Source: Minisyncoccota bacterium (GTDB lineage Bacteria; Patescibacteriota; Minisyncoccia; Phycocordibacterales; JABAAK01). Taken from it: 64,000 bases of DNA. The stretch lies in contig OZ241963.1 in assembly GCA_965204115.1 (NCBI GenBank), positions 377,548 through 441,547 on the forward strand, in the 5' to 3' direction. The notes under the pieces were generated by a model. It was not told where the DNA came from. It was given only the letters and a program-made list of their open reading frames with translations, and searched no databases. Of the stretch, positions 2,518 to 22,400 are shown in pieces. The position numbers and the translations under genes are program-made. Position 1 is the first letter of the stretch, and the number at the start of each line of letters is the position of its first letter.

Positions 2518-2523
2518 CAACGA

Positions 2524-2541
2524 GAAAATACTTGTATTTTC
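2524..2541 (+). terminator. Short hairpin GAAAATAC-TT-GTATTTTC immediately after tRNA-Ser
   Basis: Perfect 8-bp inverted repeat with 2-nt loop seen directly in sequence; a near-identical hairpin recurs at 9464-9477. Confidence 0.4.
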
Positions 2542-2545
2542 TTGT

Positions 2546-2640
2546 GGAGAGGGAGCAGTGCAATTGAATTTGCCCTGCGAGTATTCTTAGCGAACGAAGT
2601 GATCTTAGAAACTTGACGCCGAATCCCTCCCTCTCCGCAG
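2546..2640 (+). repeat. Degenerate tRNA-Ser-like element: starts GGAGAGGG and ends with an exact copy of the tRNA-Ser(GCT) 3' end (GAATCCCTCCCTCTCCGCA); inverted-repeat partner at 9484-9560
   Basis: 5' end mimics acceptor 5' strand, last 20 nt identical to tRNA 3' end, but no T-stem 5' strand (GACGCC replaces GAGGGTTC), so not a functional tRNA. 2584-2640 is ~93% identical to rc of 9484-9540. Confidence 0.7.
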
Positions 2641-2678
2641 TTAAAAGATGTTTGTGTGTCTGAAAGGGTGGTTTTTGA

Positions 2679-3167: not shown

Positions 3168-3171
3168 AAAA

Positions 3172-4599
3172 TTATTGAACGATGACAGAGGTCATCATAC
3201 CGGCATCGGCATGTTCTGTGATGTGGCAGTGGTTCATCCAGATTCCCCGGTCAAGCGGTATCAGGCCGATGTCTACCGTTTCTTTTGAGCTGACAAGGAC
3301 AGTGTCTCTAAAATACTGCTCGCTGACCGGCTGCCCGTTGCGGGAAATAACCTTGAAAAACTGTCCGTGCAGGTGCATTGGGTGTAAACGAAATGATTTA
3401 TTTGTGAAACGAATTTTATTAAACTCTGCGTGTTTTAGTATCACCGGATCATGTTCCGAAAATACTTTGTCATTCATAGTCCACTCAATATCCCCTGAGG
3501 CGGAGGTTCGCGCGTCAAGGATGTACTCTTCGTCAATAGGCGCTTCTGTAGCATCTGACCAGTCCGGCACCTGCGGGTTTGTAGGGTGTGAAAATGTCGG
3601 TGTTTCCACTGCCTCCCCTTCAGCAGTAATAGTTCCGAGTGTGTTTGTGTACGATGTGAAGAAATCACGCACGACAAACGACTTTCCGTTCGCATCGTTC
3701 GGAATGGTGATATCAACATCTATTCTATTACCCGGGGCGAGTGCAAATCCGTCCGCGTTGAAGATCTCCTTGACATACATGCCATCAACGGCGATGACAT
3801 TCGCCTGCAAACTGCTGAAGTGCGGCTTATATACCCGACCGTTTGAGGCATTGATGAGGCGGAGACGAATTCTCTCCCCGGGTCTGACTGACAGAACCTC
3901 TTCTGTTGACCCATTGACCGTGATGACATTCCCCCACCTGCCGTCGTGTGCAAGGTCGTGTCGTGTGACAAAGTGTGGGCTAATCTGATAGCTTTCCTCA
4001 AGCAGCCAGTCGTCAATAACCCACACAATGTCCTGCGAATACTGTTCAACATATTCATCTTCCACAACAACAGTTCCGTACAACCCCCGCTCCATTTGCT
4101 CACTGGTGTTTTTGTGCGGATGAAACCAAAATGTTCCTGCGTCTTTCGGGGTGAATATATACACGAATGAATTACCCGGCTGTACTGCTTCCTGTGTGAC
4201 ATCCGGCACGCCGTCCATTTCGTTCGGCACACGAATGCCGTGAAAGTGTATGGTGCTCTCCTGCGGCAGATTATTCACGAAAGTAAGGCGTAATGTGTCC
4301 CCTTTTTGTATCCGTATTTCCGGCCCCGGAACCGTGCCGTTGTAACTCCACACTGCCGTTGTATGTCCTTCAAAAATCTCTACTGCACTCTCTTCGGCAA
4401 TTACTGTCACCTCCACGATGGTGCCGCCCTGCTCCGCTGTTTCAGTGTATGCCCCTGCAAATTCCTCGGCAAAAGATGTCTTCAGTGAGATGCTGCTTGT
4501 GATGTCAATGCTTCCTGATAGCAGGCATGCAAGGAAAATGAGGGCTGCAACGCACACCACACCAACTGTTGTTTTGTTTTTGGATAGCGCACGGTTCAT
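3172..4599 (-). CDS. Multicopper oxidase (CueO/laccase-like), secreted
   Basis: 475 aa with N-terminal signal/TM region and the four copper-ligand motifs HFHGIRVP, WFHPHKN, HPMHLHG and HCHITEHADAGMM. Confidence 0.85.
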   Translation of the reverse strand: MNRALSKNKTTVGVVCVAALIFLACLLSGSIDITSSISLKTSFAEEFAGAYTETAEQGGTIVEVTVIAEESAVEIFEGHTTAVWSYNGTVPGPEIRIQKGDTLRLTFVNNLPQESTIHFHGIRVPNEMDGVPDVTQEAVQPGNSFVYIFTPKDAGTFWFHPHKNTSEQMERGLYGTVVVEDEYVEQYSQDIVWVIDDWLLEESYQISPHFVTRHDLAHDGRWGNVITVNGSTEEVLSVRPGERIRLRLINASNGRVYKPHFSSLQANVIAVDGMYVKEIFNADGFALAPGNRIDVDITIPNDANGKSFVVRDFFTSYTNTLGTITAEGEAVETPTFSHPTNPQVPDWSDATEAPIDEEYILDARTSASGDIEWTMNDKVFSEHDPVILKHAEFNKIRFTNKSFRLHPMHLHGQFFKVISRNGQPVSEQYFRDTVLVSSKETVDIGLIPLDRGIWMNHCHITEHADAGMMTSVIVQ

Positions 4600-4684
4600 T
4601 GTATTATTAGTATATATGGTAACAGAATGCGGGGTTCTCTTGCGGCACCTTATGTAATAGCGGAGTAGACGCTGCTGGGCATAT

Positions 4685-4705
4685 CCCCCCTCCTCCTCTC
4701 CGCAA
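4685..4705 (+). repeat. Third copy of the tRNA-Ser 3'-end core (CCTCTCCGCAA) in the oxidase/spondin divergent intergenic region
   Basis: 11-12 nt identical to the last nucleotides of tRNA-Ser(GCT), preceded by a C/T-rich tract; chance expectation for a specific 11-mer in this window is ~0.03. Confidence 0.35.
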
Positions 4706-4759
4706 TTTTACACAGTCACAAATAAAAACAACACTGCGTGGCGTATAGTAAGTGTAAAT

Positions 4760-5488
4760 ATGGGCGTAGGGAAAAAACATGTACTCATCATAGTGATAGT
4801 CGGGGCTATCATTGTGTCTATTGTCATGTCGTCAAACTCGTCGGTAACAGAAAACCCGGTGCCGCAAGAAGATGCAGTTATAGATATCACACCGGAAAAT
4901 GAAACAGTGCCGATTGCGACAGAGCAAAATGAAAGGGTGTATACCGTTCGCATGCGCTCATCATGGAGTAAAGATTCGCATCCGAATTTTCATCCCGACG
5001 GATCGCACCTGTCTCCCATGATTGCATGGTCACACACATTTGAAGATACACTATTCAAATCAGGAGCTGTTGCCAGTGAAGGGATGGAGATAATGGCGGA
5101 AACCGGAGCGCCGACAGTAATCACAGAAGAAATAAAGGCACTGATTGCGAAAGGAAGTATTCTTGACTATGGTGTCGGATCGGTGTTTTTCACACCCGGA
5201 GAAGAAGAAGTGCAGGTGAGGGTTTCACCAAGCACACCGTATATAACGGTGGTAAGTATGATTGCACCAAGCCCCGACTGGTTTGTTTCCGCGCGTAATG
5301 TAAAACTCTATGACCAAGGGAAGTGGGTGGAACAAACGAGCATCCCGGCGCCGCTCTACGATGCAGGAACGGACGACGGAGAGGAGTTTACCTCGGCAGA
5401 CAAAGATACACAGCCGAAACAGCCGATTGGGAGATTTGCAGGAGCGCCTTCTGCCTCCATCGTCATTTTTGAATTTATAAGTAATTAA
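4760..5488 (+). CDS. Secreted Spondin_N-domain protein
   Basis: Signal/TM N-terminus, then motifs typical of bacterial spondin-N homologs (SSWSKDSHPNFHPDGSH, MIAPSPDWFVSARN, DAGTDDGEEF). Confidence 0.6.
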   Translation: MGVGKKHVLIIVIVGAIIVSIVMSSNSSVTENPVPQEDAVIDITPENETVPIATEQNERVYTVRMRSSWSKDSHPNFHPDGSHLSPMIAWSHTFEDTLFKSGAVASEGMEIMAETGAPTVITEEIKALIAKGSILDYGVGSVFFTPGEEEVQVRVSPSTPYITVVSMIAPSPDWFVSARNVKLYDQGKWVEQTSIPAPLYDAGTDDGEEFTSADKDTQPKQPIGRFAGAPSASIVIFEFISN

Positions 5489-5499
5489 CTTTCTTCTTT

Positions 5500-5973
5500 A
5501 TGAAAAAAACTGTGGCCATTGTTATTTTAGGAATCATCATCGTTGCGGGCATCGGCTATGCGGCGAGTGTTGGTTCACCTGAAAATGATACAGCGCTTGA
5601 AATATACCCTGACGATGTGACCACCGCCCCGACTGCAGATACCTCACCAAACTCAACAGGCGGCGAATATGTGAACTACAGTGACTCTCTTGTGCAGCAG
5701 ATGCTTGCTGACGGGAAGCGGGTTGTTTTATTCTTCCATGCGGCGTGGTGTCCGACCTGTAATTTGGCAGACAGAAGAATACAAGAAGCGGCACACCAGA
5801 TACCATCTGATGTTGCCATCTTTAGGGTTGATTACGATCGCGAAAAAGCGTTAGTGGATGCGTATGGTGTTTTGTATCAACACACATTCGTGCAGCTTAC
5901 CGAAGGTGGGTCTCTGGTAACCAAGTTCCAAGGCAGCAGCACACTGCCGGCAATACTTGCCAATATACAATAG
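5500..5973 (+). CDS. Membrane-anchored thioredoxin-like protein (TlpA/ResA-like), WCPTC active site
   Basis: 157 aa, N-terminal TM helix, FFHAAWCPTC thioredoxin motif. Confidence 0.8.
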   Translation: MKKTVAIVILGIIIVAGIGYAASVGSPENDTALEIYPDDVTTAPTADTSPNSTGGEYVNYSDSLVQQMLADGKRVVLFFHAAWCPTCNLADRRIQEAAHQIPSDVAIFRVDYDREKALVDAYGVLYQHTFVQLTEGGSLVTKFQGSSTLPAILANIQ

Positions 5974-5978
5974 GAATT

Positions 5979-6725
5979 ATGTTTGGCCTTCTTTTCATTT
6001 CTTTTATTGCAGGCATCTTAACAGTATTTGTTCCCTGTATTTTCCCGCTTATCCCTGTTGTTATTGGTGGCTCTGTTTCCGGTACCGAGCGGAATTCATA
6101 TACTATTATCGGCTCGTTGGTTGTTGCCATTGTCCTTTTTACGGTTGTTATCAAAACTTCTTCCGATGCGCTTGGCGTGCCGACTGAATTTTGGACCTAT
6201 GTTTCCGGTGTGCTGGTTGCCCTGGTCGGGCTTACTTTTGTATTCCCCTCTATGTGGTCTAAGGTTCCCTTAGTGTCTCGGCTTTACAAAAACAGTAACT
6301 CTCTTCTTTCCCGAGGACACCGAAAGTCCGGTACCGTCGGTGATATCATCATCGGCTCTGCGCTGGCACCCGTATTCACCTCCTGCAGCCCCACATACCT
6401 CCTCATACTTGCTGTTATCTTACCGAACAGCTTACTACAGGGAGGTGCTTATTTGCTCGCTTACGCGCTTGGTGTCGGCACCATCCTCTTATTTATATCA
6501 CTCATCGGACAAAGTATTATTCAAAAATTCGGCTGGCTGTCAGACGGTAATAACACATTCAGAAAAATCATCGGCGTCATCATCCTTATCGTCGGCATTA
6601 TGCTCGTTACCGGATATGACAAGGTTTTTGCGGCCTGGATTTTAGACATCGGTTTCATAGACTTCATCGGTGCTGAAGAAACCCTCTTAGAATCTGTAAT
6701 GGACAAACAGGTTACTTCGCAATAG
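5979..6725 (+). CDS. ccdA: CcdA/DsbD-family thiol-disulfide transporter
   Basis: 248 aa polytopic membrane protein with the two conserved Cys-containing segments VFVPCIFPLIPV and FTSCSPTYLL. Confidence 0.8.
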   Translation: MFGLLFISFIAGILTVFVPCIFPLIPVVIGGSVSGTERNSYTIIGSLVVAIVLFTVVIKTSSDALGVPTEFWTYVSGVLVALVGLTFVFPSMWSKVPLVSRLYKNSNSLLSRGHRKSGTVGDIIIGSALAPVFTSCSPTYLLILAVILPNSLLQGGAYLLAYALGVGTILLFISLIGQSIIQKFGWLSDGNNTFRKIIGVIILIVGIMLVTGYDKVFAAWILDIGFIDFIGAEETLLESVMDKQVTSQ

Positions 6726-6736
6726 TGGTGAGAATA

Positions 6737-8185
6737 CTACATCAAAAGAAAGTACTCAAGCGGTATTTTAATAGTGTTATTTTCGGAATCCAGTGATACC
6801 GTGGAGGTGTTATCTACAACAACACTGAACGCTGGATTTGCCCGTTTTGCCGTTTGCTTTACCTGTCTCAAATTTTTACCGCCGGCACTAACCTCAATAA
6901 CGATATTCTTCCCTCCAAAATTAACTACGAAATCAGCACCACCCTCCTTGGCGTCGTAAGTCAGGGTGACATCTGGGGTTTCAGGAGACACATTTACACG
7001 GTGTAGCGTAAGTCCAACTATATCTTCTAACAATTTTCCGTACATTACTTCGGGAGATAGAGTGCTCCCTCCTTTTTTAAAAATTGCCGAGCGAAATACC
7101 GGAGCGATAAACAGAAACTTTGACCTTTGTCGCACTTGGGCGTTGTGTGATGCTGTGTACGCCGGAATGTGCTGTAACATTCCTGCACCCACAAAAGCGT
7201 CAAATAAATTTTTCGTTGTGTGTCGACTGAGATTCAGTGCGTTCTTCCCGAGTGACTCATAACTAATCTGATCTGCAGATGCGAGTAAATATAGTACCGT
7301 TGGTGCTTTCTTAATGGTGCCTATCTTAAAGTTGGATGTTTGTGTTATATCTTCCCCAATGATGCGGTCAAGTATCCTGTTGCAGGAGTTAAACGCTTCT
7401 TCAGGTTGTTTTAGAAGCATGGATGGCAGTGAGCCCATTTTTATATATTTTTTTACTTCGCTTGGGTCAATGGAAGCGTAGTATTTTTTTATTTCACTTT
7501 CCAGAGAAGTGATTTTGTGATACACCTCATCTGCATCCACACTTTCAAAAAATGCTGTGCGTATTTGTTTTTGTATGCCTGCATGCAGTGGCTTTTTGTT
7601 CTTTAGTGTCATATACTCAGTGAAACTGAGTGGCAACATTTTTACAGACTCTTCCCTGCGCACTATATCGTTGTTCTCACTTAAATGCAGCGCGGAGGAT
7701 CCGGTTACATATATAAAAACTTTTCGCTTGGCACGATCATACACATCCTTGAGTGTGATGCCCCATTTTTTGTCATACTGTGCTTCGTCTATGAAGAGAA
7801 TCAATGGTTTTTCACGATTTTCAAAAGCACTGCCGGATATCTCCTCGTACACACGCAGCACATCGAACAGAGACACATTAAATAGCTCCGTGATTCTGTC
7901 CACTGATAAAAACAAAGTGTCGACCTCTTTGCGTGTCATTTCAGAAAGAATCTGCATAAGCATGGTTGTTTTTCCGACACCGCGCAATCCGGTTACGATG
8001 CACCAAGAGTATGTCATATTACCGCCTAAAAAATCGTCTGCGTACGCTTTTACCTGGGTGAAAATGTCTCGCTTTGGGTATTGATTGCCGGAAGGGTCCG
8101 TTGTGTACTGCTCCGCTACAGCACTTGTGTTTGCCATCTGTTCCCGCAAAAAAACCTCTATTTTTTCCCTTGTTTCTATATTCAT
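6737..8185 (-). CDS. AAA+ ATPase (AAA_14/DUF4143 family)
   Basis: Walker A GLRGVGKTT, Walker B ILFIDEAQY. The ORF track starts at 8260, but those first 25 codons are encoded by the palindromic repeat cluster; likely true start is MNIETREK at 8185. Confidence 0.75.
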   Translation of the reverse strand: MNIETREKIEVFLREQMANTSAVAEQYTTDPSGNQYPKRDIFTQVKAYADDFLGGNMTYSWCIVTGLRGVGKTTMLMQILSEMTRKEVDTLFLSVDRITELFNVSLFDVLRVYEEISGSAFENREKPLILFIDEAQYDKKWGITLKDVYDRAKRKVFIYVTGSSALHLSENNDIVRREESVKMLPLSFTEYMTLKNKKPLHAGIQKQIRTAFFESVDADEVYHKITSLESEIKKYYASIDPSEVKKYIKMGSLPSMLLKQPEEAFNSCNRILDRIIGEDITQTSNFKIGTIKKAPTVLYLLASADQISYESLGKNALNLSRHTTKNLFDAFVGAGMLQHIPAYTASHNAQVRQRSKFLFIAPVFRSAIFKKGGSTLSPEVMYGKLLEDIVGLTLHRVNVSPETPDVTLTYDAKEGGADFVVNFGGKNIVIEVSAGGKNLRQVKQTAKRANPAFSVVVDNTSTVSLDSENNTIKIPLEYFLLM

Positions 8186-8345
8186 ACTTCTATTGAAATA
8201 TACAAGGAACAGGTATTCCTTGTATAGTGTAGTATACAAGGAATTAGTATTTCTTGTCAAGTGTAGTATACAAGGAATGAAATTTGGAAAAATATGCTTT
8301 TAAATAAGGGTATTTTTGTGAATTCCTTGTATAGTGGTTTTATAA
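8186..8345. repeat. Cluster of 5-6 copies of 11-mer TATACAAGGAA in both orientations (e.g. TTCCTTGTATAGTGTAGTATACAAGGAA)
   Basis: Seen at ~8209, 8225, 8242, 8275, 8321, 8341; lies between the bcp stop and the ATPase start, so likely operator or decayed miniature repeat. Confidence 0.6.
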
Positions 8346-8801
8346 GGAACCTATGAGGGCAAGTACTTGCTGTGCATGCCCTTGCGCTTTGACCGTTTTC
8401 CAATGCTTGAGGATGGTGCCGCTTTCATCTACCAATACCGTACTGCGGACGATGCCCATTGATTTTTTGCCGAAATTGTTCTTTTCCCGCCATGCGCCGT
8501 ACGCCTCAATCATTTCGCCATTTTCATCACTGAGCAAGTCAATACCAAACCCATGCTTATCACAAAACTTCTTGTGTGAGGTGACAGAATCTTTCGAAAT
8601 ACCGAATACAACGGTGTTTTGTTTTTCAAATTCCTTACGCAACGCCGAAAACTCCAATCCCTCAGTTGTACACCCCGGCGTGTCGTCTTTCGGATAGAAG
8701 TACAGTACTACCCGCTTCCCTGCCAGATCAGCAAGTGAAACCATCTCACCGTCCTGGTTTTCCAACGAAAATGCCGGCGCCTTTTGCCCTTCCATACTCA
8801 T
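8340..8801 (-). CDS. bcp: Peroxiredoxin Bcp (thiol peroxidase)
   Basis: Core aligns to Bcp (FSLENQDGEMVSL..VVLYFYPKDDTPGCTTE). The ORF track extends to 8942, but that 47-aa extension (twice TRNATSVS) is encoded by REP-like palindromes; start placed at MSMEGQ. Confidence 0.8.
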   Translation of the reverse strand: MSMEGQKAPAFSLENQDGEMVSLADLAGKRVVLYFYPKDDTPGCTTEGLEFSALRKEFEKQNTVVFGISKDSVTSHKKFCDKHGFGIDLLSDENGEMIEAYGAWREKNNFGKKSMGIVRSTVLVDESGTILKHWKTVKAQGHAQQVLALIGSL

Positions 8802-8822
8802 TACTGACAGTGTAGCACAGGA

Positions 8823-8853
8823 GCAACGCGACACGGATGTCGCGTTGCGAGTA
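8823..8853. repeat. REP-like 31-bp palindromic element GCAACGCGACACGGATGTCGCGTTGCGAGTA (copy A)
   Basis: Stem CAACGCGACA / TGTCGCGTTG with 4-nt loop. Partial second copy at 8884-8907, exact reverse-complement copy at 12673-12703. Confidence 0.75.
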
Positions 8854-8883
8854 AGATGCGGCTGCCAAGTCGCACAATAAAAT

Positions 8884-8907
8884 GACACGGATGTCGCGTT
8901 GCGAGTA
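8884..8907. repeat. REP-like palindromic element, partial copy B
   Basis: GACACGGATGTCGCGTTGCGAGTA, identical to the 3' 24 nt of copy A. Confidence 0.65.
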
Positions 8908-8983
8908 GGCGCAAATTGAATTTTGCGCCGCGAGGCAGGCATATTTCCCGTGGCGACCTCTCTCTTGTGTTACAATCCTAATA

Positions 8984-9055
8984 CTCCTCGTAGTTCAACG
9001 GATAGAACGCGGGCTTGCGGAGCCCGTAATGCAGGTTCGATTCCTGCCGAGGAGG
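8984..9055 (+). tRNA. tRNA-Arg (anticodon GCG by manual fold)
   Basis: Acceptor CTCCTCG/CGAGGAG, D-arm GTTC-AACGGATA-GAAC, anticodon stem CGGGC/GCCCG with loop TTGCGGA, T-arm GCAGG-TTCGATT-CCTGC. Confidence 0.6.
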
Positions 9056-9074
9056 CTTGGGAGTAATACAGTGT

Positions 9075-9455
9075 ATGTTTAAATACTATATAACAGGTAT
9101 AAAAAAATCCATGGATTTTGACGGGAGGGCGAGAAGGAGAGAGTTTTGGGTTTTTGCGCTTATGCACGCAGTTATCTCTTCTGCAATATTAGTCGCATTC
9201 ATATCTATCGTTCCTACGATCCCGTACGGGGGTACAGAGTTGATAGTATTAACATGGTACTTTCTTACAGCCATTCCATTGTTGGCAGCTGTGTGCCGGA
9301 GATTGCACGATACAGGGAAAAGTGGATGGTGGATTTTTATACAGTTTGTTCCGCTTGTCGGACCTATTTGGCATCTCATAAATTTGTTATCAGATAGTGA
9401 GCCAGGAGGCAATCAGTATGGTCCGAATCCGAAACAGCGATCTGTGTCGACATAG
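9075..9455 (+). CDS. DUF805 (YhaH/YhaI-like) inner-membrane protein
   Basis: DFDGRARRREFW, RRLHDTGKSGWW and C-terminal GGNQYGPNP match the DUF805 family pattern; start moved to MFKYY to clear the tRNA. Confidence 0.75.
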   Translation: MFKYYITGIKKSMDFDGRARRREFWVFALMHAVISSAILVAFISIVPTIPYGGTELIVLTWYFLTAIPLLAAVCRRLHDTGKSGWWIFIQFVPLVGPIWHLINLLSDSEPGGNQYGPNPKQRSVST

Positions 9456-9460
9456 AAAAT

Positions 9461-9560
9461 AACAAATACAAGTATTTTCTACTTGCGGAGGGGGAGGGAT
9501 TCGGCGTCGAGTTTCTAAGCTCACTTCGTTCGCTAAGAACTCCCTGCCCGGGCTCGGCGA
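9461..9560 (-). repeat. Inverted-repeat partner of 2524-2640: hairpin AAATAC-AA-GTATTT plus copy of the tRNA-Ser(CGA) 3' end (GAATCCCTCCCCCTCCGCA) plus shared arm
   Basis: rc of 9484-9540 aligns to 2584-2640 (TTCTTAGCGAACGAAGTGA-CTTAGAAACT-GACGCCGAATCCCTCC-CTCCGCA). The copy carries the CGA-isoacceptor-specific CCCCC variant. Confidence 0.7.
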
Positions 9561-9684
9561 CAATTTTATTCCGCTTCGCTCCATAAAATCGTAGACCGCC
9601 TGCGCCTTTCGAATCCTCCGCAACGCGAAATACTATTCGCGCTGCTCCCCTCCTCGTAATAAAAATGTAAACATTTTTTAACTG

Positions 9685-9775
9685 CGGAGGGGGAGGGATT
9701 CGAACCCTCGATACGAGTGTATACTCGTATACCGGTTTTCGAAACCGGCGCTTTCAACCACTCAGCCACCCCTCC
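9685..9775 (-). tRNA. tRNA-Ser (anticodon CGA)
   Basis: rc gives GGAGGGGTGGCTGAGTGGTTGAAAGCG..; anticodon stem CCGGT/ACCGG with loop TTCGAAA, long variable arm, T-arm GAGGGTTCGAATCCCTC. Confidence 0.75.
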
Positions 9776-9803
9776 AGTGTGTATGGTGTATATGATACCG
9801 TAT

Positions 9804-10883
9804 TTAGTCGTTGGCACCCTCTTCCGCCTCTCCTGCGGCGATTTTTTCCAGCGACTGCACCACTGCCTCATTGGTGAGGAGTGAGGTGATGTAGGTGTGG
9901 ATCTGGTCGTCGGTCATATCAGTTTGCTTTTTCTTGAAGCGTTCCACCTCTCTTTCTACTTCATCTATGCCGGCGCGGATATTCTCCTGTGTGCTGATGG
10001 TGTTCATAATGAGCTGTATTTTTGCCCGTTTTCGCGCGTCTTCCCGCAACTGTTCCCACAGCTTCCCTTCTGACATTTTTTGTGCTTTGAGGTAATCCTC
10101 TATAGTGGTGTTGAAATGCTCTGCCTGTGCCTTCATCTCCTCGTATGCTCGCTTACTCTCCTCTTCAATCATTATTTCCGGCAGGGTAATGGTGGTTTGC
10201 TCTGCGATGGTGTCCAGTAGTTTTTGGCGGAATAGTGCACGCGCCTGCAATGCTTTTTCCTGTGTTATAGATTCCTGTATTCCTTTTTTGAAACTTTCTA
10301 CATCTTTGTGCTGTTGTGATACTTCCTGCACATATTCGTCAGTGAGCTCCGGCAAATCACTATCATCTTTCGGAATATCTTTTTCCGGATGCGCTTTTTT
10401 GTATAACCCCCTTCGCACATCCAAGAGTACTTGCTGCATTTCCTCATCGGTCGCCTCTTTTGGCTCTTCCGGCTTTTCCATCTTTTGCAAGAGTGGCTTG
10501 TAGTCCGGCAGTGTTACTTTCGGCATCATGTAAAACTCAATTTGAAACGACACATCATGCTTGTCAGCGATATTGGTTATCTGCATCTGCGGCTGCCCCA
10601 GTGGCACCACACCCTCCCCCGCCACGATGTCGGCAAAATGTTTTGTTATCACTTCCTGTGCGCTTTGTCGCCAAATCTCTAACGGGCCGATTTCTCGCTC
10701 CACGACCTCCGGCGGCGCGTTCCCCTCTCTGAATCCGTCTATTTTTTTCTCTGCCCCGATTCTCTGCAGCACCTCATCACGCACCGCCGCTATCATGTCT
10801 TTCGGCACCACGCCGTCAATCTTGGCGTGTGCTTTTTCATCGTCCTTGTGTATTTGTATTGAAAATTGTTCTTGTGTAGTCAT
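9804..10883 (-). CDS. tig: Trigger factor (N-terminal ribosome-binding and C-terminal chaperone domains; no PPIase domain)
   Basis: KIDGFREGNAPPEVVE matches the TF signature GFRxGxxP; the C-terminal region LPELTDEYVQE.. resembles the TF C-domain. At 359 aa it is too short to hold an FKBP domain. Confidence 0.65.
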   Translation of the reverse strand: MTTQEQFSIQIHKDDEKAHAKIDGVVPKDMIAAVRDEVLQRIGAEKKIDGFREGNAPPEVVEREIGPLEIWRQSAQEVITKHFADIVAGEGVVPLGQPQMQITNIADKHDVSFQIEFYMMPKVTLPDYKPLLQKMEKPEEPKEATDEEMQQVLLDVRRGLYKKAHPEKDIPKDDSDLPELTDEYVQEVSQQHKDVESFKKGIQESITQEKALQARALFRQKLLDTIAEQTTITLPEIMIEEESKRAYEEMKAQAEHFNTTIEDYLKAQKMSEGKLWEQLREDARKRAKIQLIMNTISTQENIRAGIDEVEREVERFKKKQTDMTDDQIHTYITSLLTNEAVVQSLEKIAAGEAEEGAND

Positions 10884-10890
10884 GGTAGTA

Positions 10891-11253
10891 TTATTCTTTT
10901 TCTTCCCCTTCTTCCTCTGTCAAATCTGTTAAAATTTCTGTTTCGAGCTCTTTTAATTTCTCCTGATTTTTTTCTCCGGATTGCAGAAGGGTATTTATTA
11001 TTCGCACCGCCTCAGCATCGGTTAGGTTTTCGTAGAGTATGGTGCCTTGCGGGGTGGCGTTGCTGTCCGGCAGACCCTCTACGACAATGTTTTTTTGTGA
11101 TTGCTCTTCCTGCACTTCTCTTTTATCATTGAGAATCTTTTTGATCGCGTTATATGCCATACCGATAACAATGAGCACTATCAGTATCATTGCGAAAATC
11201 GCACCATAGGTTGAACTGTATTTTTGGCTATCTTCCATACTTGCACGATACAC
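10891..11253 (-). CDS. Hypothetical membrane-anchored protein
   Basis: ORF with a single N-terminal TM helix and acidic C-terminus; no recognised domain. Confidence 0.4.
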   Translation of the reverse strand: MYRASMEDSQKYSSTYGAIFAMILIVLIVIGMAYNAIKKILNDKREVQEEQSQKNIVVEGLPDSNATPQGTILYENLTDAEAVRIINTLLQSGEKNQEKLKELETEILTDLTEEEGEEKE

Positions 11254-11290
11254 TGCTCTTTTGGTTTACGCAACCGCGTCCCACCCCGCG

Positions 11291-11941
11291 TTACCGATCA
11301 CCCTTTGTTACCGAATTTATCTTGACAAAGAGCAGTGCGATTTCTCTTCGTAGGGCGTATGATTGCTCCTGTATCTCATTCAAGTTGCTAATAATGCTTT
11401 TTTGGTTCAGATGGTGCAGGAGCCATTCGGTAAATGAGGTGTAAAGGCCGTACTTTTGCACTATCGCATAGCTCAACGGTGCATCACTTTCTATGTAGGG
11501 GAAAACAGCCACCTTCAGCCGCTCCGCCTCAAAGGCATGCTGATCTATTTCCTCCTGATAGCCGTTTTTCAGCTTTGTGGGAAAGTTTTCGATGAGCGTA
11601 TATAGTATCTTCGTTAGTTCGTTGTTTTCTTTTATCCCCTGTGCAATACGCGCCCGGTATTCATCAACATCCCGTGCATAGTCGTGCGCCCCCTCCGGCA
11701 CCCGCTTTTTCACCTTCCCGAAGAGTGATGAGATGAGTACGCTGTATTCTTTGTCGGCAATGGAGATAATCAGCTGATCATTGGTGACACTTGTTTCTGC
11801 GGCAACATGCCAGAGCGGAAATGATGCCGTTGCCACGAGCAGCAGTAGCGTCACCACCAAAACTAACGCATCAGATATAATCCCGCTCTTTTTTATTCCG
11901 ACCTCTTCACTGGTGATGTTTTTGTTTGGGATGAAATACAT
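11291..11941 (-). CDS. Hypothetical membrane-anchored protein
   Basis: 216-aa ORF with one TM helix; no recognised domain. Confidence 0.45.
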   Translation of the reverse strand: MYFIPNKNITSEEVGIKKSGIISDALVLVVTLLLLVATASFPLWHVAAETSVTNDQLIISIADKEYSVLISSLFGKVKKRVPEGAHDYARDVDEYRARIAQGIKENNELTKILYTLIENFPTKLKNGYQEEIDQHAFEAERLKVAVFPYIESDAPLSYAIVQKYGLYTSFTEWLLHHLNQKSIISNLNEIQEQSYALRREIALLFVKINSVTKGDR

Positions 11942-11950
11942 ATGATGGGG

Positions 11951-12481
11951 TTATTTACTGAATTTCTCTTTATACAATTTGCGCGACCGTTCAAATGCTT
12001 CTTTTGCTTCCGCCGCTGTGCCGACACCCTGTATATCTATCACCTTGTTCTGAATCTTTTTGTAGGTTTCAAAAAAGTGCTGTATCTCCTTTACCGTGTG
12101 CTTGTTCACATCACCGATATCTTTCACCTCGTCAAAGCGCGGATCATCCGCCGGCACACTGAGAATCTTATCATCGCTCTCACCGTCATCTATCATTTTG
12201 AAAACGCCGACCGGCCGCACCGGAACAAGAATACCGGGATACAGCGGGTAGGTAGTGATGACAGCGATATCCAGCGCATCGTCATCGTCCCACAAAGTTT
12301 GCGGGACAAATCCGTAGTCGACCGGATAGTCCTGAGCGGTATGCATCGCGCGATCAAGCGCAATGATGCCCGTCTCTTTGTCTATCTCATATTTGTTTTT
12401 TGATCCGCGAGGTATCTCTATGATGGCATGCATCACATCAGCATTACCCGGGTCAATGTCGTGTAACAAATTCATACACAC
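11951..12481 (-). CDS. ppa: Inorganic pyrophosphatase
   Basis: Aligns along its length to E. coli PPase (IIEIPRGSKNKYEIDKETG, DALDIAV, RPVGVFKMIDDGESDDKI, HFFETYK). Confidence 0.9.
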   Translation of the reverse strand: MCMNLLHDIDPGNADVMHAIIEIPRGSKNKYEIDKETGIIALDRAMHTAQDYPVDYGFVPQTLWDDDDALDIAVITTYPLYPGILVPVRPVGVFKMIDDGESDDKILSVPADDPRFDEVKDIGDVNKHTVKEIQHFFETYKKIQNKVIDIQGVGTAAEAKEAFERSRKLYKEKFSK

Positions 12482-12531
12482 TATTTGTTTACCTTTCTAT
12501 TGTACCCTAAAAAAATGATTGTGCAAGTACA

Positions 12532-13854
12532 CTATTCCCCAATCTCTTCAGTGTTTTTTTCGGCCTCATCTTTGACATCTTCTGCTTCTGTGGTTTTGCT
12601 TTCTGGTGCTGCTTCTTCTGTTTCAGTTGGTTTGTCTTCTTCTGTTGTTTTTTCGTCTTCGCTGCTTTCTTCTACTCGCAACGCGACATCCGTGTCGCGT
12701 TGCTCCTCCCTTTTAAATATTGTTATGTCCCCTTCTACGGTTGATTGTGCTACTTCTGTGCCGCCCGGGTCGGTGATGACAACTTCCCAGTCGGTCAGCT
12801 TTGCCGCGAGTTTGAGGTTCTGCCCGCCGCGGCCGATGGCAACCGGTATCTGATCATCGCTTGTTTTTACCAGTGCTCGCTTGCTCTCCTCGTTGATTTC
12901 CACTCCCATCACTTCTGCCGGCAACAATGCTTCGCCGATAAACTCTGAGATATCGCTCGGCCAGTTGATGATGTCAATCTGCTCGCCGTTCAGTTCACTC
13001 TTCACGGTCATCACCCGCACCCCCCGCTGCCCGACAAATGCTCCCACCGGATCCACCGACGGACTTTTGCTCTCAACCGCGATTTTGGTGCGGACACCCG
13101 GATCGCGTGCGATTGCTTTTATCTCAAGCGTTCCTTCGGTCAGTTCCGGCACTTCCGTTTCAAATAGCCGCACGACAAATTTTTCATCGGCTCGGGATAG
13201 TCGCACAAAGCCGCCGCTTCGCCGCTCGGTGTTTATTGACTGCACAAAGGCGCGGATGGTATCCCCTTGATTAAATCGTTCACCGCGTATCTGCTCTGAG
13301 AAAGGTAGTATTGCTACTGTTCTCCCGAGATCAACAAATACATTTCCCCGCTCCACGCGCTGCACCTGTCCGTGTACCAGTTTTCCTTCTTTTCCTTGAA
13401 ACTCTTCCACTGCCGCGTCTCGCTCCGCCTCGTGTATCTTTTGGGTTATCGCCTGTCGTGCTGATTGCGCTGCAATTCTGCCGAAATCGGTTTTCGACTC
13501 CAGCGGGAAGAGAATTTCTTCTCCCTGCTTCACCCCCTGCCGCACTAGCTGCGCATCGTCCACCATCATGTGTCGCTCAGGATTGAATCGCACCCGCTCT
13601 TCATCCTCTTCTTTTGGTGCCTCGTCTTCCGGGAGGATGTGTGCCTCATCTAATACCTGCTTCACCTGAAAAAAAGTTGACTCCCCCGTGCTTTGATTGA
13701 TTCTGCAGCGGACAATCTGATCACTCTTGCCATATTCCCGCTTATACGCCGTCGCAAACGCCGTTTCTAGCGCCTCCCATAGTGCATCCTCCGGCAAGTG
13801 CCGATCCTCTGCTATTTGTTGTACTACCGCTTTTATTTCTTTAATATCAAACAT
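12532..13854 (-). CDS. nusA: Transcription termination/antitermination factor NusA, with acidic C-terminal tail containing an in-frame REP-like element
   Basis: N-terminal domain, S1 and KH-like regions are recognisable. The C-terminal ~80 aa are E/D/K/T-rich, and codons for EEQRDTDVALRVEE are the 31-bp palindrome at 12673-12703. Confidence 0.85.
   Translation of the reverse strand: MFDIKEIKAVVQQIAEDRHLPEDALWEALETAFATAYKREYGKSDQIVRCRINQSTGESTFFQVKQVLDEAHILPEDEAPKEEDEERVRFNPERHMMVDDAQLVRQGVKQGEEILFPLESKTDFGRIAAQSARQAITQKIHEAERDAAVEEFQGKEGKLVHGQVQRVERGNVFVDLGRTVAILPFSEQIRGERFNQGDTIRAFVQSINTERRSGGFVRLSRADEKFVVRLFETEVPELTEGTLEIKAIARDPGVRTKIAVESKSPSVDPVGAFVGQRGVRVMTVKSELNGEQIDIINWPSDISEFIGEALLPAEVMGVEINEESKRALVKTSDDQIPVAIGRGGQNLKLAAKLTDWEVVITDPGGTEVAQSTVEGDITIFKREEQRDTDVALRVEESSEDEKTTEEDKPTETEEAAPESKTTEAEDVKDEAEKNTEEIGE
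12673..12703. repeat. REP-like 31-bp palindromic element, copy C (exact reverse complement of 8823-8853)
   Basis: TACTCGCAACGCGACATCCGTGTCGCGTTGC; 31/31 identity to rc of copy A. Confidence 0.8.
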
Positions 13855-14130: not shown

Positions 14131-14201
14131 GCGAGTATAGTTTAGTGGTAGAACGCGGCCTTGCCATGGCTGAGACGGGAGTTCGATTCTCCCTACTCGC
14201 A
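14131..14201 (+). tRNA. tRNA-Gly (anticodon GCC)
   Basis: Acceptor GCGAGTA/TACTCGC, anticodon loop TTGCCAT, T-arm GGGAGTTCGATTCTCCC. Confidence 0.8.
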
Positions 14202-14246
14202 CTGACATCATACAGATGTGACGCTTTTCTTTTTTCGCAGTGAGTT

Positions 14247-14972
14247 CTAACGGTGCTTTTTCAGGTGCGTCGTAAAAAATGCAAGTGCATCTTCCAGTAT
14301 CTCTCTTTTCATAGGTTTAAAAAACTCTTTTTTGTGAATTGGCTGATTTACTTTTCTATCCCCTTCTAAAAGGGTGATGATATGCAGTGTGTAATCGAAG
14401 TAAGACATGAGAGTGTGGGTGCTGGCACTGCCGAATTTTTTCTCTTTGAAAATATCGGAGTAATCTCCTCCGAGCTGGCTTTCAAATTGAAACAATACAA
14501 CTTCTGCGTCAGGAGACATTTCTTTAATAAAGGATCCGTCAATTAGCACTCGTTTTATCATCGCATTTTCTGCGTATGATTTACATTCAATGGCCATAAC
14601 GAGATTCTCTCTGATGTATACTGGCACATCTATCTTAAACTTGTAGGAATAATCTTTTATATTTTTCTTTATGTAACCAGCTACCTCTTTATCCTGCACT
14701 CTTTTCAGGTAGTCCTTTTTCAGCGGAACAGTCACAGCGCCCTTGTTAGTTCTTAAATCAGAAATGTCACCAGTTAGGTTAAACCACGCTCTTTTGACAA
14801 GTCCGCGTGCAAACGCTTCAACAAAAGAACCTTTGATGGACCGCTCTATCCCGCCGGATGCCCGCTGCCTGTCCTGCACTTTAAAATCTACATCCTCAAC
14901 TAATGAATTATATGCCTCCAGCAACTCATCAATTGTTGGGATGTCGGGAATATTTGGAGCATCTTGTGACAT
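14247..14972 (-). CDS. Putative Type II restriction endonuclease (PD-(D/E)xK-like)
   Basis: 241 aa, AT-rich, immediately downstream of and co-oriented with a DNA methyltransferase. Candidate catalytic motif IDVPVY..ENLVMAIECKSY (D..E-x-K). Confidence 0.5.
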   Translation of the reverse strand: MSQDAPNIPDIPTIDELLEAYNSLVEDVDFKVQDRQRASGGIERSIKGSFVEAFARGLVKRAWFNLTGDISDLRTNKGAVTVPLKKDYLKRVQDKEVAGYIKKNIKDYSYKFKIDVPVYIRENLVMAIECKSYAENAMIKRVLIDGSFIKEMSPDAEVVLFQFESQLGGDYSDIFKEKKFGSASTHTLMSYFDYTLHIITLLEGDRKVNQPIHKKEFFKPMKREILEDALAFFTTHLKKHR

Positions 14973-14983
14973 ATACTTCTGTA

Positions 14984-16225
14984 TTAGAGCAGTCTACCAC
15001 TTAATCGTCTTTTTGCAACATCACAATATTCTTTTGATATATCAATTCCCAAATATCTTCTGTCAAGTGTGTGGGCAACACTAGTGGTCGTCCCAACGCC
15101 ATTAAAAACATCTAATATTACATCGTTTTTAAAACTAAACAACTTTAGACATCGTATCACAAGGTTTTCAGGAAACATTGCAGGATGGCCGTATTCTTTC
15201 ATTTTTCTTTCTGGTGCGATAGACCACTTAGCGACAACCCATTTTTTAAACTCCTCTGCTGATATATCAATGTTTTCTGCATCTCCTGCATGCTTTAAGT
15301 CACCCTTGCAAAAAACCTCAATGAATTCCCATGTGTACTTGAGGTATGGGCTGCTCGGACTCTTCCAACTACCCCACGCTGTATACTTGCAATTATAGTT
15401 GTTTTTTTCCCACAATATCTCCCCTTTCCAAAGCATGCCGATATCCAACAGGTACTTGGAAATAAGATGATGTGTCGGGATGTAATCTGAAAACAATGGT
15501 TGCACATTCACAATCATTCGCCCTCCGTGTTTTAACACTCGCCTTGTTTCATTTAGTATAGCGAAAAGTTGCGTAAAGTACTCATCCCATCTTTTATCAT
15601 CTTCACCACTTTCATATTCAAGACCAAAGTTGTATGGTGGCGATGTTACCATCACATCAATGCAATTGTCAGGTAATTTTTTGAGCACCTCCAAACTGTC
15701 ACCGCATACTATCGCGTTTTCATATTCAGATGGCAAGATGTTTGTTTGTGTGTCGTTTTTATTATTTTTTTTCTTTACGCTGGCAGTTCTCTTCTCAGAT
15801 TTTTCTTTTCTGTTCTTTACCTTTCGCTCCTTATTAAAATTAATATATACTCTTTTCCCGCTTCGCAATCCATATGAACCAATGCTGTCGACCGCCTCAA
15901 CGAAATCGTCAATTAAATCTACCATTACCAGATCTTCACCTTCACTTGCTTTTATCTCTAATGCTCGTATTTTGAACTTTTCAAAGTTAAGATTATTAAC
16001 AAAAAGCTTTACTTCCCTTGCTCCCTTTGGCTCAAAGTAGATATGGTTATCAAATTCGTTGAAAAACGAGCGCATGACATCTTGGCTTTTCTTGTCAAAT
16101 TGATGCCTGGTTCTCAATGCAACCTCTTTATATTCCATATGTTTAGTATATCTCACAAAATTTATTGTCAATAATGATATCCCGAATTGATGAATGATTG
16201 CAAAATGCGCAGTAAATCTTATCAA
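14984..16225 (-). CDS. Beta-class DNA methyltransferase (SPPY motif, probably N4-cytosine or N6-adenine) with N-terminal extra domain
   Basis: Motif IV TSPPY precedes the C-terminal AdoMet motif I VILDVFNGVGTT (beta-class order). The N-terminal ~160 aa is unassigned; an internal start at MEYKEV (~16138) is possible. Confidence 0.8.
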   Translation of the reverse strand: MIRFTAHFAIIHQFGISLLTINFVRYTKHMEYKEVALRTRHQFDKKSQDVMRSFFNEFDNHIYFEPKGAREVKLFVNNLNFEKFKIRALEIKASEGEDLVMVDLIDDFVEAVDSIGSYGLRSGKRVYINFNKERKVKNRKEKSEKRTASVKKKNNKNDTQTNILPSEYENAIVCGDSLEVLKKLPDNCIDVMVTSPPYNFGLEYESGEDDKRWDEYFTQLFAILNETRRVLKHGGRMIVNVQPLFSDYIPTHHLISKYLLDIGMLWKGEILWEKNNYNCKYTAWGSWKSPSSPYLKYTWEFIEVFCKGDLKHAGDAENIDISAEEFKKWVVAKWSIAPERKMKEYGHPAMFPENLVIRCLKLFSFKNDVILDVFNGVGTTTSVAHTLDRRYLGIDISKEYCDVAKRRLSGRLL

Positions 16226-19454: not shown

Positions 19455-22400
19455 CTACTCCGCATCGTTGGAGTGGGTGGCGCCAATATTGCCCGCTCTG
19501 TCACGCACGATGAAACAGACGCCGTTTAGAGCGGTGGTGGGCAACTCGTAGAAGGTGAACGGTGTGTATTCGTCGCCATCGGTCGGGAAGACGGTGAGCG
19601 CGTCACATTCGGTTTTGGTCATCGCCTTTACCGCGACGGTGTCAACAGAGTCAACGGCCGCGGGCGGATCGCTGGGCGCGCCGAAGATGACTATGTCTTC
19701 GCTGCCAGTGATATTCCGGTCTTCTATACGAGAGAGCTGCATGCGCGGACTATTGACATCAATGGCAACGGTAAATTGTTCGGATTCCTGAGAGGTGTTC
19801 CCTGCGATGTCGGTCGCGGTCGCGGTGAGGGCGATAAGTCGTGATTCCTCAGGTAGGGTTCGGGTGATGGTGGCGGGAGTCCCGTCACTTCCAATGACTC
19901 CACTCGCGCCTCCTGAATCGGACAAAACAGCAACGGTATTCGGTTCAGCGCTTATCAAGAAGGTCAGATCGGTGAAGCGGTTGGTAATCCCATCCGAATT
20001 GCTCAAGCCGCTATCGTATTCGGTGGCGAGCGTGATGGCGGATGGCGGCGCGGGCGCGGTGGTGTCAATAATAATATCAAGCTGCTGTGTTGAAGTGGTC
20101 ACATTGCCCGGTATGTCCGAGACCGTTATACTCACCTGCTGCGGCTTGTTCTCGTCGTCGGGTTGCACGATGTAGGAGGCGTTGTAGCTGCCGGGGACAC
20201 CGGTTACCGACAGCGCGGTGCCGATCGCATCTGTGCCGGTGAATATACGCACGGTCGGTAGGGCGTTGTTGAAATTCAAATCTGACTCGGAAAATACTAT
20301 GTTGATGGTGTCACCCGCTTTCGCGTACTTACCGGTGTTGTTGACGGTGCCGGATGTGTTCGTGATGATCTCACCGACGAAAGGCGGTGTGGTGTCTATG
20401 TCAATGATACGCGCCGAGCGGGCGAACGAGACATTGCCGACTGCGTCGCGGGCGCGGAAACAGACATACTGCCCGTTGTACGCTTCGTCGTCCAGCACGA
20501 TACTTCCTCCGGAGGTGTAGAGATCGCCGTCTGTGTCGCTGTCAATCAGGGTTTCGTCACAGACATCACTTGTGATGACATATCGGTCGCCGGCATCCAC
20601 GGCAAGACCGGTCACGCTCGCGCTGACGACTTTTAGCCGGGCAGGGTCGGATGTCGGTCCGAATGGTGTTATGACCGGACCGGTTCGGTCTATGCCGGTA
20701 ATCTGCGCCGAGCGGGCGAACGAGACATTGCCGATTTCGTCGCGGGCGCGGTAACAGATGTAGCGTCCGTTGTATGCCTCGTTGTCCAGCACGATATTCC
20801 TGCCTGAAACATACAGATCACCATCGGCATCACTCGCGATTACGGTTTCATCACAGGCCCCGTCCGTGATGACATATCGGTCGCCGGCATCCACGGCAAG
20901 ACCGGTCACGCTCGCGCTGACGACTTTTAGCCGTGCTGTGCCGGGTTCCGGTCCGAATGGTGTTATGACCGGACCGCTCTGGTCTATGCCGATAATCTGA
21001 TCAGATCGCGTGAATGAGATATTGCCGACTGTATCAGCGGCGCGGAAACAGACATGCTGCCCGTTGTATGCTTCGTCGTCCAGCACGATACTCTCTCCGG
21101 AGGTGTAGAGCTCGCCGTCTGTGTCGGTTCTGATCAGGTCGGAATCACACGCATCGCCGGAGATGATGTAGCGGCTCTTTGCTACATCGGCATCGCCGGT
21201 GATACTGGCACTGACACTCTTGACGAGCGCCGGCTCGGTCGTTAGATCAGCAACCGCAATGGTCGGTGCTGTGGTGTCTATCCCGTCTATCTGTAGTGAG
21301 CGCACAAACGAGACATTGCCGGCTTCATCGCGGGCGCGGTAACAGATGTAGCGTCCGTTGTATGCCTCGTTGTCCAGCACGATATTCCTGCCTGAAACAT
21401 ACAGATCACCATCGGCATCACTCGCGATTACGGTTTCATCACAGGCCCCGTCCGTGATGACATATCGGTCGCCGGCATCCACGGCAAGACCGGTCACGCT
21501 CGCGCTGACGACTTTTAGCCGTGCTGTGCCGGGTTCCGGTCCGAATGGTGTTATGACCGGCGGTGTTCGGTCTATGCCGGTGATCTGTGCGGAACGGGCG
21601 AATACGATATTACCGATAGCGTCTCGTGTACGGAAACAGACATGCTGCCCGTTGTACGACTCACTGTTTAGCGCGACATTTGTGCCGGGAATATAGAGTT
21701 CGCCGTCGATATCGCTTGCAATCAGCGCTTCATCACAGGGCTCGCCTGAAATGATGTACCGCGTACCCGTGGCAACCAGTGAGAGATCCGTGATTTCTGC
21801 GCTGATGTTTTTTATTCGTGCCGTACCCCCGGAAAGCGCGGCGACATTGATAGACGGACCGGAGGTGTCTATCCCGTTTATTTGCTGCGAGCGGGCGAAC
21901 GAAACATTGCCGATCGCATCGCGGGCGCGGTAGCAGATGTAGCGTCCGTTCTGCTCCCGATCATCCAGTATGATACTGCCGCCGGAGGTATACGCCTCGC
22001 CGTCGGCATCACTCGCGATCACGGTTTCATCACAGACCTCGTCCGTGATGACATATCGGTTACCGACCGCCTCAGCGAAGCCGGTTACCCGTGCGTTGGC
22101 GACTTTCAGCCGCGCCGCGCCGGATTCCGGTCCGAACGGTGTGATGACCGGACCGCTGCGGTCTATGCCGGTGATCTGCGCGGAACGGGCGAACGAGACA
22201 TTGCCGATCGCGTCGCGCGCGCGGAAACAGACATATTGCCTGTTGTACGCTTCATCATCCAGCACGATACCGCCGCTCGGGGTATATGCTTCGCCGTCGG
22301 TATCACTTGCGATCACGGTTTCATCACAGACCCCGCCCGTGATGACATATCGGTTGCCGGCGTCTGCGGCAAGGCCGGTAATACTCACTGCGGCGACTTT

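Follow-up and report, generated by a model that had tools for sequence, protein, structure and literature searches.

Several described systems resemble the element examined here, a 31-nt palindrome that lies in a 64-kb stretch of Minisyncoccota DNA (64,000 nt of contig OZ241963.1, referred to below in full as the window), once inside nusA and once between bcp and a tRNA-Arg gene. Among mobile DNAs, IS608 inserts 3′ of a short specific target without duplicating it, by way of subterminal hairpins, and the repetitive extragenic palindromes (REPs) of enterobacteria carry a conserved GTAG 5′ of the hairpin foot. The same mode of insertion has been described for the IS200/IS605 group, from whose ends REPs are thought to derive, with REP-associated tyrosine transposases (RAYTs) mobilizing them (PMC3337134). 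Rickettsia palindromic elements (RPEs), of ∼100 to 150 bp, are inserted in frame in many coding genes, essential ones included, where they are translated and are tolerated in surface or disordered regions. A further system is an RNA: the TwoAYGGAY motif (Rfam RF01731), whose known members come from human gut Clostridiales and gammaproteobacteria, is predicted to bind or sponge CsrA (PMC4333381). We favor, with about even confidence, a reading in which the palindrome belongs to a low-copy family of hairpin cassettes, similar to REPs and IS200/IS605 elements, that would insert 3′ of GGAG without target duplication.

The element occurs as an exact 31-mer, GCAACGCGACACGGATGTCGCGTTGCGAGTA, at 8823-8853 on the plus strand and at 12673-12703 on the minus strand (0 matches expected in shuffles), along with a partial copy of its 3′ part at 8884-8907, which is 24 nt long, or 25 nt if the nusA copy is taken as the reference. 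All three placements had been given by a first-pass annotation of the window and are confirmed by exact matching. A 19-nt core is found three times, the third time at 8884-8902, against 0.01 occurrences expected; the feature is real and not a product of chance. As RNA, the 31-mer forms a hairpin of −19.4 kcal/mol (z = −5.5) with the loop CGGA; the 4-nt loop had been described correctly, while the stem has 11 bp and not the 10 bp first assigned to it. The two loci comprise the following features:

12532-13854, minus strand: nusA, encoding NusA_N, S1, and KH domains and then an acidic tail of variable length
12673-12706, minus strand: nusA copy of the element, GGAG (12706-12703) plus the 30-nt cassette CAACGCGACACGGATGTCGCGTTGCGAGTA (12702-12673)
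8340-8801, minus strand: true coding sequence of bcp (peroxiredoxin); the extension at 8802-8942 is an artifact of reading through the hairpin cluster
8820-8853, plus strand: intergenic copy 1 (module 1), GGAG (8820-8823) plus the full 30-nt cassette (8824-8853)
8984-9056, plus strand: tRNA-Arg(GCG), with the hairpin cluster ∼50 to 165 nt upstream in the same orientation

Identity between the nusA and bcp/tRNA-Arg loci covers exactly 35 nt, consisting of AGGAG, the palindrome, and GAGTA. Since alignments of the flanks score no better than shuffled sequence, the 31-mer is a discrete unit; a longer duplicated segment as its source, which had been named as a competing possibility, is ruled out, and an apparent 59-nt, 81% repeat extending beyond the 35 nt is not significant. 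The shared unit is GGAG, the last G of which closes the stem, followed by a 30-nt cassette made up of the hairpin and CGAGTA. No GTAG stands 5′ of the hairpin foot, where the flank is GGAG; GTAG is present only on the 3′ side, in two of three copies, within GAGTAG.

For comparison, we used ten contigs from relatives, with nusA loci in L004 to L009 and L013 and bcp loci in L010 to L012 (L004 and L010 come from neighboring stretches of a single 451-kb scaffold). Together with ∼106 kb from these relatives, the window brings the sequence covered to ∼170 kb. Searches with NusA and Bcp returned named matches from Kaiserbacteria and Paceibacteria (Patescibacteria); judging from sequence, the host genome appears Kaiserbacteria-like and the cassette family small and lineage specific. 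The element patterns had no match in IMG/VR, JGI metagenomes, or phage or plasmid collections. The 31-mer is not unique to the window, as four metagenome contigs from relatives carry it at the corresponding place in nusA (with 2 mismatches in one of them) and a fifth has a variant at the bcp/tRNA-Arg site; across the ∼170 kb the exact element is restricted to the two orthologous loci. The earlier description of a small interspersed palindromic element holds for a standalone, sharply bounded unit; the high copy number that "interspersed" implies for REPs is not supported in the sequence covered.

Close relatives differ in whether the nusA and bcp/tRNA-Arg loci are filled or empty, and a third site shows a clean 30-nt presence/absence after GGAG. 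This site is empty in the window:

9536-9543, minus strand: empty junction (between 9540 and 9539), ...CAGGGAG^TTCTTAGCG, paralogous/orthologous to filled sites

In L009, the same junction holds a 30-nt cassette, GGAG/TGAGGTGAATAGTATTTCACCTCAC/GAGTA, and reads ...CAGGAG(TGAGGTGAATAGTATTTCACCTCACGAGTA)TTCTTAACG, with the cassette in parentheses; in the window, the paralogous junction beside tRNA-Ser(gct) holds a related unit, cassette A, instead. GGAG stands directly 5′ of the element in nusA and in the intergenic region, of cassettes A and B of the window, and of hairpin H1 of L009, and it is kept in the empty alleles of L006, of L011, and of the window at 9540. No target duplication is apparent at the filled sites. 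Precise gain and loss next to GGAG without duplication is a signature of the IS200/IS605 and REP type and not of DDE transposons.

The wider family consists of the element, cassettes A and B in the window, and H1 and H2 in L009. The two window cassettes are placed as follows:

2552-2583, plus strand: cassette A, GGAG/CAGTGCAATTGAATTTGCCCTGC/GAGTA, downstream of tRNA-Ser(gct), with the junction GGAG^TTCTTAGCG
9614-9648, minus strand: cassette B, GGAG/CAGCGCGAATAGTATTTCGCGTTGC/GGAGGA, ∼35 nt downstream of tRNA-Ser(cga)

When each is read in the direction of its neighboring gene, family members share a 5′ GGAG (its last G again closing the stem), a hairpin core of 25 nt, and GAGTA or GGAGG on the 3′ side. 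The GGAG-hairpin-GAGTA pattern occurs 7 times in 170 kb versus 0 times in shuffles. Over seven distinct family sequences, 8 of the 11 stem pairs change on both sides, and pairing is retained in 90.9% of cells, compared to 77.9% in shuffles (0/500 as high) and ≤52% with slid partners. Cassette B is retrieved in the window (22.6 bits, E = 0.0035) by a covariance model for which the element copies alone were used. Its hairpin, GCAACGCGAAATACTATTCGCGCTGC at 9620-9645, agrees with the 31-mer in outer arms and 26-nt frame but not in inner stem and loop, and the orthologous hairpin in L009 retains the outer arms. Membership of cassette A is marginal, resting on its ends, its junction, and an inner GCAATTGAATTTGC in common with one of the intergenic hairpins (module 4, below). 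All window members lie within ∼10 kb (2.5 to 12.7 kb), and every member is in the sense orientation of its nearest gene, be it nusA, either tRNA-Ser, or tRNA-Arg.

Cassettes A and B each lie in a short segment that has a tRNA-Ser gene on one side and an incomplete second copy of that gene's 3′ end on the other, a placement that would also suit scars or cores of site-specific recombination, either att-like integrase remnants at tRNA genes or inverted recombinase sites able to invert 8854-12672. In keeping with this idea, the tRNA-Ser trailers are swapped, L009 has its tRNA-Gly duplicated around phage-like genes, and the two 10-nt arms around an asymmetric 6-nt ACGGAT resemble a tyrosine-recombinase core whose copies are inverted in both genomes. 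Furthermore, the reverse complement of the element tail and arm start (TACTCGCA) equals the 3′ end of the tRNA-Gly(gcc) beside nusA, although this 8-nt match was found post hoc and is weak evidence. Against such scars, the genes from nusA to tig keep one order and orientation throughout the window, L004, L009, and L013, so that no inversion is seen (an invertible segment between the inverted copies was rejected on finding none in any relative), and no recombinase gene was found nearby; for these reasons, we regard recombination scars as highly improbable. The nusA and bcp sites also have no tRNA-end duplication, and a symmetric double change in L010, described below, fits base pairing and not two independent half-sites.

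The tRNA-Ser loci have a structure of their own. Behind each gene lies a segment of 100 to 220 nt (2519-2655 and 9464-9683) that closes with an incomplete repeat of the tRNA's 3′ terminus, and the two loci are linked by a 72-nt inverted repeat (88% identity), with the trailers of the real genes and the partial copies exchanged. These segments look like old integrase scars or the result of an inversion of the ∼7-kb segment between them.

In nusA, the open reading frame (ORF) is intact, and its product is 100% identical to a database protein (P0001). Translation bears out the claim of an in-frame copy in the acidic C-terminal tail: the ORF reads the element as EEQRDTDVALRVEE, with the 30-nt cassette contributing ten codons (QRDTDVALRV) just past the KH domains, where the acidic tail begins. 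The exact 31-mer is found at the same position in L004, L005, and L007, and with 2 mismatches in L008, where one of the two changes creates an uncompensated A·C mismatch. L005 carries an additional 30-nt tandem copy that has diverged and no longer folds. The element is absent from L006, L009, L013, and more distant relatives. L006 has the empty allele GAG GAG AGG GAA GAA, in which GAGGAG is retained; the identity of its nusA core to the others (0.92 to 0.94) is the same as that among filled alleles, and L006 is nested among them. L013 reads GAG AGG GAC ACG GAA and has no right arm. In general, alleles lacking the element have AGG where the element has its left arm, CAACGC. A programmed frameshift signal was considered and rejected, as there is no in-frame slippery heptamer and the upstream codons differ in relatives.

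On the question raised earlier, whether tail and element are lineage specific, the NusA tail differs in length and sequence across relatives, and the element is missing from those named above. Four genomes (the window, L004, L005, and L007) carry the element unchanged; in these, variable columns number 0/31 in the element versus 46/105 in the downstream acidic tail (p = 5e-7), and the nusA core of the same four genomes varies at 13% of columns (p = 0.01). Plain selfish DNA does not predict a nusA copy so much more conserved than the tail around it. The invariance introduces the strongest rival of the mobile-cassette reading, one that we consider possible though rather unlikely, namely, that the palindrome is a selected RNA hairpin with a GGA loop that acts in sense transcripts as a protein-binding or RNA-stabilizing site. 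This explanation is compatible with a mobile origin; the nusA copy would be a site embedded in mRNA, and the intergenic cluster would be a small RNA with two GGA hairpins, akin to a TwoAYGGAY sponge. Its predictions are in line with the 0/31 variable columns set against 44% in the tail, with the sense orientation of every family member, and with retention of the loop ACGGAU and tail GAGUA in all element copies but that of L008. The sequence ACACGGAUGU, which caps the stem, agrees with the CsrA/RsmE consensus A/U-CA-NGGA-NG-U/A (given in literature cited in PMC4333381), and csrA transcripts have been reported among the highly expressed genes of ultra-small groundwater prokaryotes (PMC9938205).

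Other results speak against a selected RNA. A tblastn search with Escherichia coli and Bacillus subtilis CsrA gave no match in the window or in the relatives' loci. The loops of other family members lack GGA, and no other long-stem hairpin with a GGA loop is present in the window or in L004 to L011. In addition, strains can do without the element, as L006, L011, and L012 lack it, L008 carries the uncompensated mismatch, and the second L005 copy has lost its hairpin. Both loci match one hairpin of TwoAYGGAY below threshold, at 21.7 bits against a gathering score of 43 (E = 0.3 to 0.9 even for a few hundred bases), with model positions 76 to 105 of 168 matched and no match to the second half. 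The likeness to this motif lies in the long G+C-rich stem, the AYGGAY loop (here ACGGAU), the agreement of AACGCG...CGCGUU with the consensus, and the two ACGGAU motifs 54 nt apart in the intergenic cluster; in contrast, the single matching hairpin reaches half the gathering score, the stem of the second motif has 4 to 5 bp, one copy lies in a coding sequence, and known members come from other bacteria.

The surroundings of nusA are variable on both sides. The region upstream, beyond tRNA-Gly(gcc), is different in each relative and is an integration hotspot: the window has an N6/N4 methyltransferase and a 241-aa partner (14131-16225), L007 a SacI-like enzyme and a C5 methylase (2048-4186), L008 a PDDEXK protein (857-2515), and L009 a duplicated tRNA-Gly, phage tail genes, and a copper oxidase (4091-9745). 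Directly downstream of nusA are unrelated insertions in L004 (11342-18146, 6.8 kb), L005 (11369-12740), L006 (1589-3615), and L007 (5859-6835), several of which start with a terminator-like hairpin, CGCCCTCCTGAAAGCAGGAGGGCG; the window, L009, and L013 have ppa in that place instead.

Between bcp and tRNA-Arg, the full cassette is the first of four modules, the others being as follows:

8854-8883, plus strand: module 2, 30 nt, hairpin GCGGCT-GCCA-AGTCGC
8884-8907, plus strand: module 3, 5′-truncated copy of the cassette (GACACGGATGTCGCGTTGCGAGTA)
8908-8935, plus strand: module 4, hairpin GGCGCAAA-TTGAAT-TTTGCGCC (GGCGCAAATTGAATTTTGCGCC) with the tail GCGAGG, its inner part matching cassette A at 2552-2583

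The insert as a whole measures ∼107 to 112 nt, running from ∼8820/8824 to ∼8930/8933; it is present in the window and L010 and missing in L011 and L012. Copy 1 abuts the extended −10 element (TGCTACACT) of an apparently leaderless bcp promoter. Read through in the opposite direction, the cluster gives bcp a 200-aa ORF (8340-8942) with a 47-aa N-terminal extension that holds TRNATSVS twice. Because all Bcp homologues are 151 to 153 aa long, start at MSMEGQ or MEGQ, and have no counterpart of this extension, the extension is spurious, and the claim that the copies inflate the ORF and create a false Bcp N-terminus stands.

Comparison of the window and L010 reveals 4 substitutions within the insert, all of them in predicted stems and all keeping plus-strand pairing. 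In the full cassette, G8830A and C8841T form a compensatory pair (G-C to A-T, or GC to AU in RNA); module 3 of L010 has the same C-to-T change as right arm 1 (GC to GU); and the G·U pair of module 2 in the window is A-U in L010. On the minus strand, 2 of the 4 would give A·C mismatches. This pattern counts in favor of the selected RNA hairpin, while the intergenic RNA that it calls for has neither a promoter nor a terminator of its own that we could detect, the cluster lying between two divergent promoters. A transcription factor operator for bcp is judged unlikely, since base pairing accounts for the symmetric pair of changes in L010 better than two protein half-sites would.

Compensatory changes can also arise without selection. 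Template switching is documented to make perfect stems and multibase compensatory changes (PMC8794818), which tells against reading the L010 substitutions as selection on RNA and raises another explanation: the palindromes may be by-products of mutation, with template switching creating and homogenizing inverted repeats and short-patch ectopic conversion copying between nearby hairpins, with neither mobility nor function. Such an origin is unlikely in our judgment but keeps some weight, as template switching can mimic compensatory evolution and may explain the exchange of modules. Several observations agree with it. In L010, the left arm has changed in concert with both right arms (1 and 2); cassette B of the window has the outer arms of H2 in L009 but the inner part of H1; and all window family members are close together. 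Moreover, the loop and some of the left arm may be ancestral, given that the outgroup L013 has GAC ACG GA, though no right arm, at the homologous nusA position. What local mutation leaves unexplained is the constant 30-nt unit, the CGAGTA tail, and the 5′ GGAG at independent sites, as well as the left arm CAACGC where alleles without the element have AGG, and the conserved loop and tail. Birth of the nusA palindrome in situ purely by template switching is weakened by the same difference between AGG and CAACGC and by the presence of older cassettes with the same arms at the tRNA-Ser locus.

Two further features adjoin this locus. Overlapping palindromes built from ATTCCTTGTATA and TATACAAGGAAT occupy 8199-8278, between bcp and an AAA_14/DUF4143 ATPase gene, and are conserved in L010, L011, and L012. 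They overlap the mechanically called TTG start of the ORF at 6737-8260, whose true start is probably the downstream MNIETREK. On the other side, a DUF805 membrane protein gene (window 9057-9455, L011 1501-1890, L012 567-950) is found in differing neighborhoods: in the window and L012 it adjoins tRNA-Arg, whereas in L011 it is flanked by Memo and peptidase S9. The gene may thus form a small mobile cassette.

In the mobile-cassette reading, movement or copying of the cassettes would have proceeded through single strands folded into hairpins, as with REPs and IS200/IS605 elements, and would have been served in trans by a Y1 (HUH) transposase that we infer to be encoded elsewhere in the genome. 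A 30-nt insertion into the low-complexity, length-variable acidic tail of NusA would have kept the frame, the unit being 30 nt, and would have been tolerated, given that the tail varies across relatives. Between bcp and tRNA-Arg, four modules would have accumulated into a cluster resembling bacterial interspersed mosaic elements (BIMEs), which was then called as a false Bcp N-terminus. Once in place, the copies would remain in sense transcripts as hairpins of high stability, and they may have acquired a role by co-option.

Several findings weigh against this mobile-cassette reading. None of the window ORFs scanned (∼10% of the genome) yielded a Y1 transposase, RAYT, or integrase domain, and the Pfam tables of the relatives' loci list none either, the only transposase trace there being a DDE fragment in L009. 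There is one hairpin per unit, unlike two-ended IS200/IS605 derivatives or inverted REP doublets. Copy number looks low in the sequence covered, the family having four loci in the window, of which one is intragenic, and cassette A is not significant with the element-only covariance model (11.5 bits, E = 1.6). The empty alleles are also imperfect. In nusA, AGG stands in place of 30 nt, a net difference of 27 nt, which is not a clean excision product. At the intergenic locus, the empty alleles of L011 and L012 align ambiguously, and whereas L011 (TAGGAG^CATT) keeps GGAG, L012 has GGAA and is a misfit. Finally, the invariance of the nusA copy amid variable surroundings points to selection or homogenization over neutral selfish DNA. 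A more specific proposal would account for that invariance inside a fast-evolving protein tail: the 30-nt hairpin with its five-base tail would be a complete mobile unit, inserted 3′ of GGAG by a trans-acting HUH/Y1 enzyme, and the nusA and bcp/tRNA-Arg copies would have been co-opted as CsrA-like GGA-loop RNA sites. We think this combination improbable.

Compared to REPs, BIMEs, and RAYT-associated repeats, the cassettes are alike in being short palindromes (REPs are imperfect ones of ∼20 to 40 nt) that form hairpin families, with conserved foot or flank nucleotides and covarying stems; they also cluster with other motifs (the BIME-like array at 8820-8935), vary in presence among strains, and form stable transcript hairpins. 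They appear to differ in number and placement, REPs having tens to hundreds of mostly extragenic copies where the sequence covered here has few, one of them intragenic; in arrangement, the inverted doublets known as REPINs contrasting with single, direct units; and in flanks, which are 5′ GGAG and 3′ CGAGTA instead of the 5′ GTAG of enterobacterial REPs. RAYT genes are usually flanked by REPs; no RAYT was seen in the window or the relatives' loci. In the literature searched, we found no report of REP-like elements in Patescibacteria.

With IS200/IS605 elements and palindrome-associated transposable elements (PATEs), the cassettes share insertion 3′ of a short specific sequence (a tetra- or pentanucleotide in IS200/IS605 elements), absence of target duplication, and apparently precise excision or insertion, and as in IS200/IS605, a hairpin and not terminal inverted repeats defines the unit. 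Those elements have two distinct end hairpins and measure at least ∼100 nt, whereas a single 25-nt hairpin with a 5- to 6-nt tail seems to make up the unit here, and neither the window nor the ∼106 kb of relatives revealed a TnpA that could act in trans. The nusA copy recalls RPEs as a translated, in-frame palindromic insert in an essential gene; it differs in being 30 nt long and in having one known coding site, and there is no sequence relationship.

Two other identities for the palindromes were rejected. The hairpin is not an intrinsic terminator, because the stem is followed by GAGUAGAAGAA or GAGUAAGAUG with no U-tract; a terminator scan calls the full hairpin on neither strand. A CRISPR mini-array, which would call for three or more regularly spaced repeats with unique spacers, does not fit either: a full repeat is followed by a single truncated one at a period of 54 nt, the third copy lies inside nusA, and the window ORFs scanned contain no cas domains.

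For annotation, the cassettes make false N-termini, as in Bcp, and lineage-specific "insertions" in core proteins, and pipelines for candidate phyla should mask them. If the cassettes do move, streamlined, epibiont-type genomes of ∼0.66 Mb would still host REP-like mobile DNA, in a unit unusually small, among the smallest known to be mobile, and of a length that happens to preserve reading frames; they would also be a source of variation in the disordered tails of essential proteins. An invariant GGA-loop hairpin in a diverging tail is, in any case, a testable candidate RNA regulatory site in a group for which almost nothing is known of posttranscriptional control.

Elsewhere in the window, a tandem array at 39885-40400 comprises seven copies of a 16-nt palindrome, TGTTTCACGTGAAACA; TGTTTCACG occurs 16 times against 0.7 expected. 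GC skew changes to positive at this position, so the array may mark an origin of replication or serve as a set of binding sites for a regulator. At 49339-49379, a palindrome with a 19-bp stem contains a related GTGAAAC motif. On the minus strand, 19455-31907 is a giant ORF of 4150 aa with ∼25 tandem 294-nt (98-aa) repeats, and relatives have a similar repeat gene with faint Big_3_3/Big_6 matches. Lastly, the window encodes a tRNA-Ile with the anticodon UAU (53516-53589) in addition to the tRNA-Arg with the anticodon GCG (8984-9056), both of which are unusual decoding choices in bacteria.

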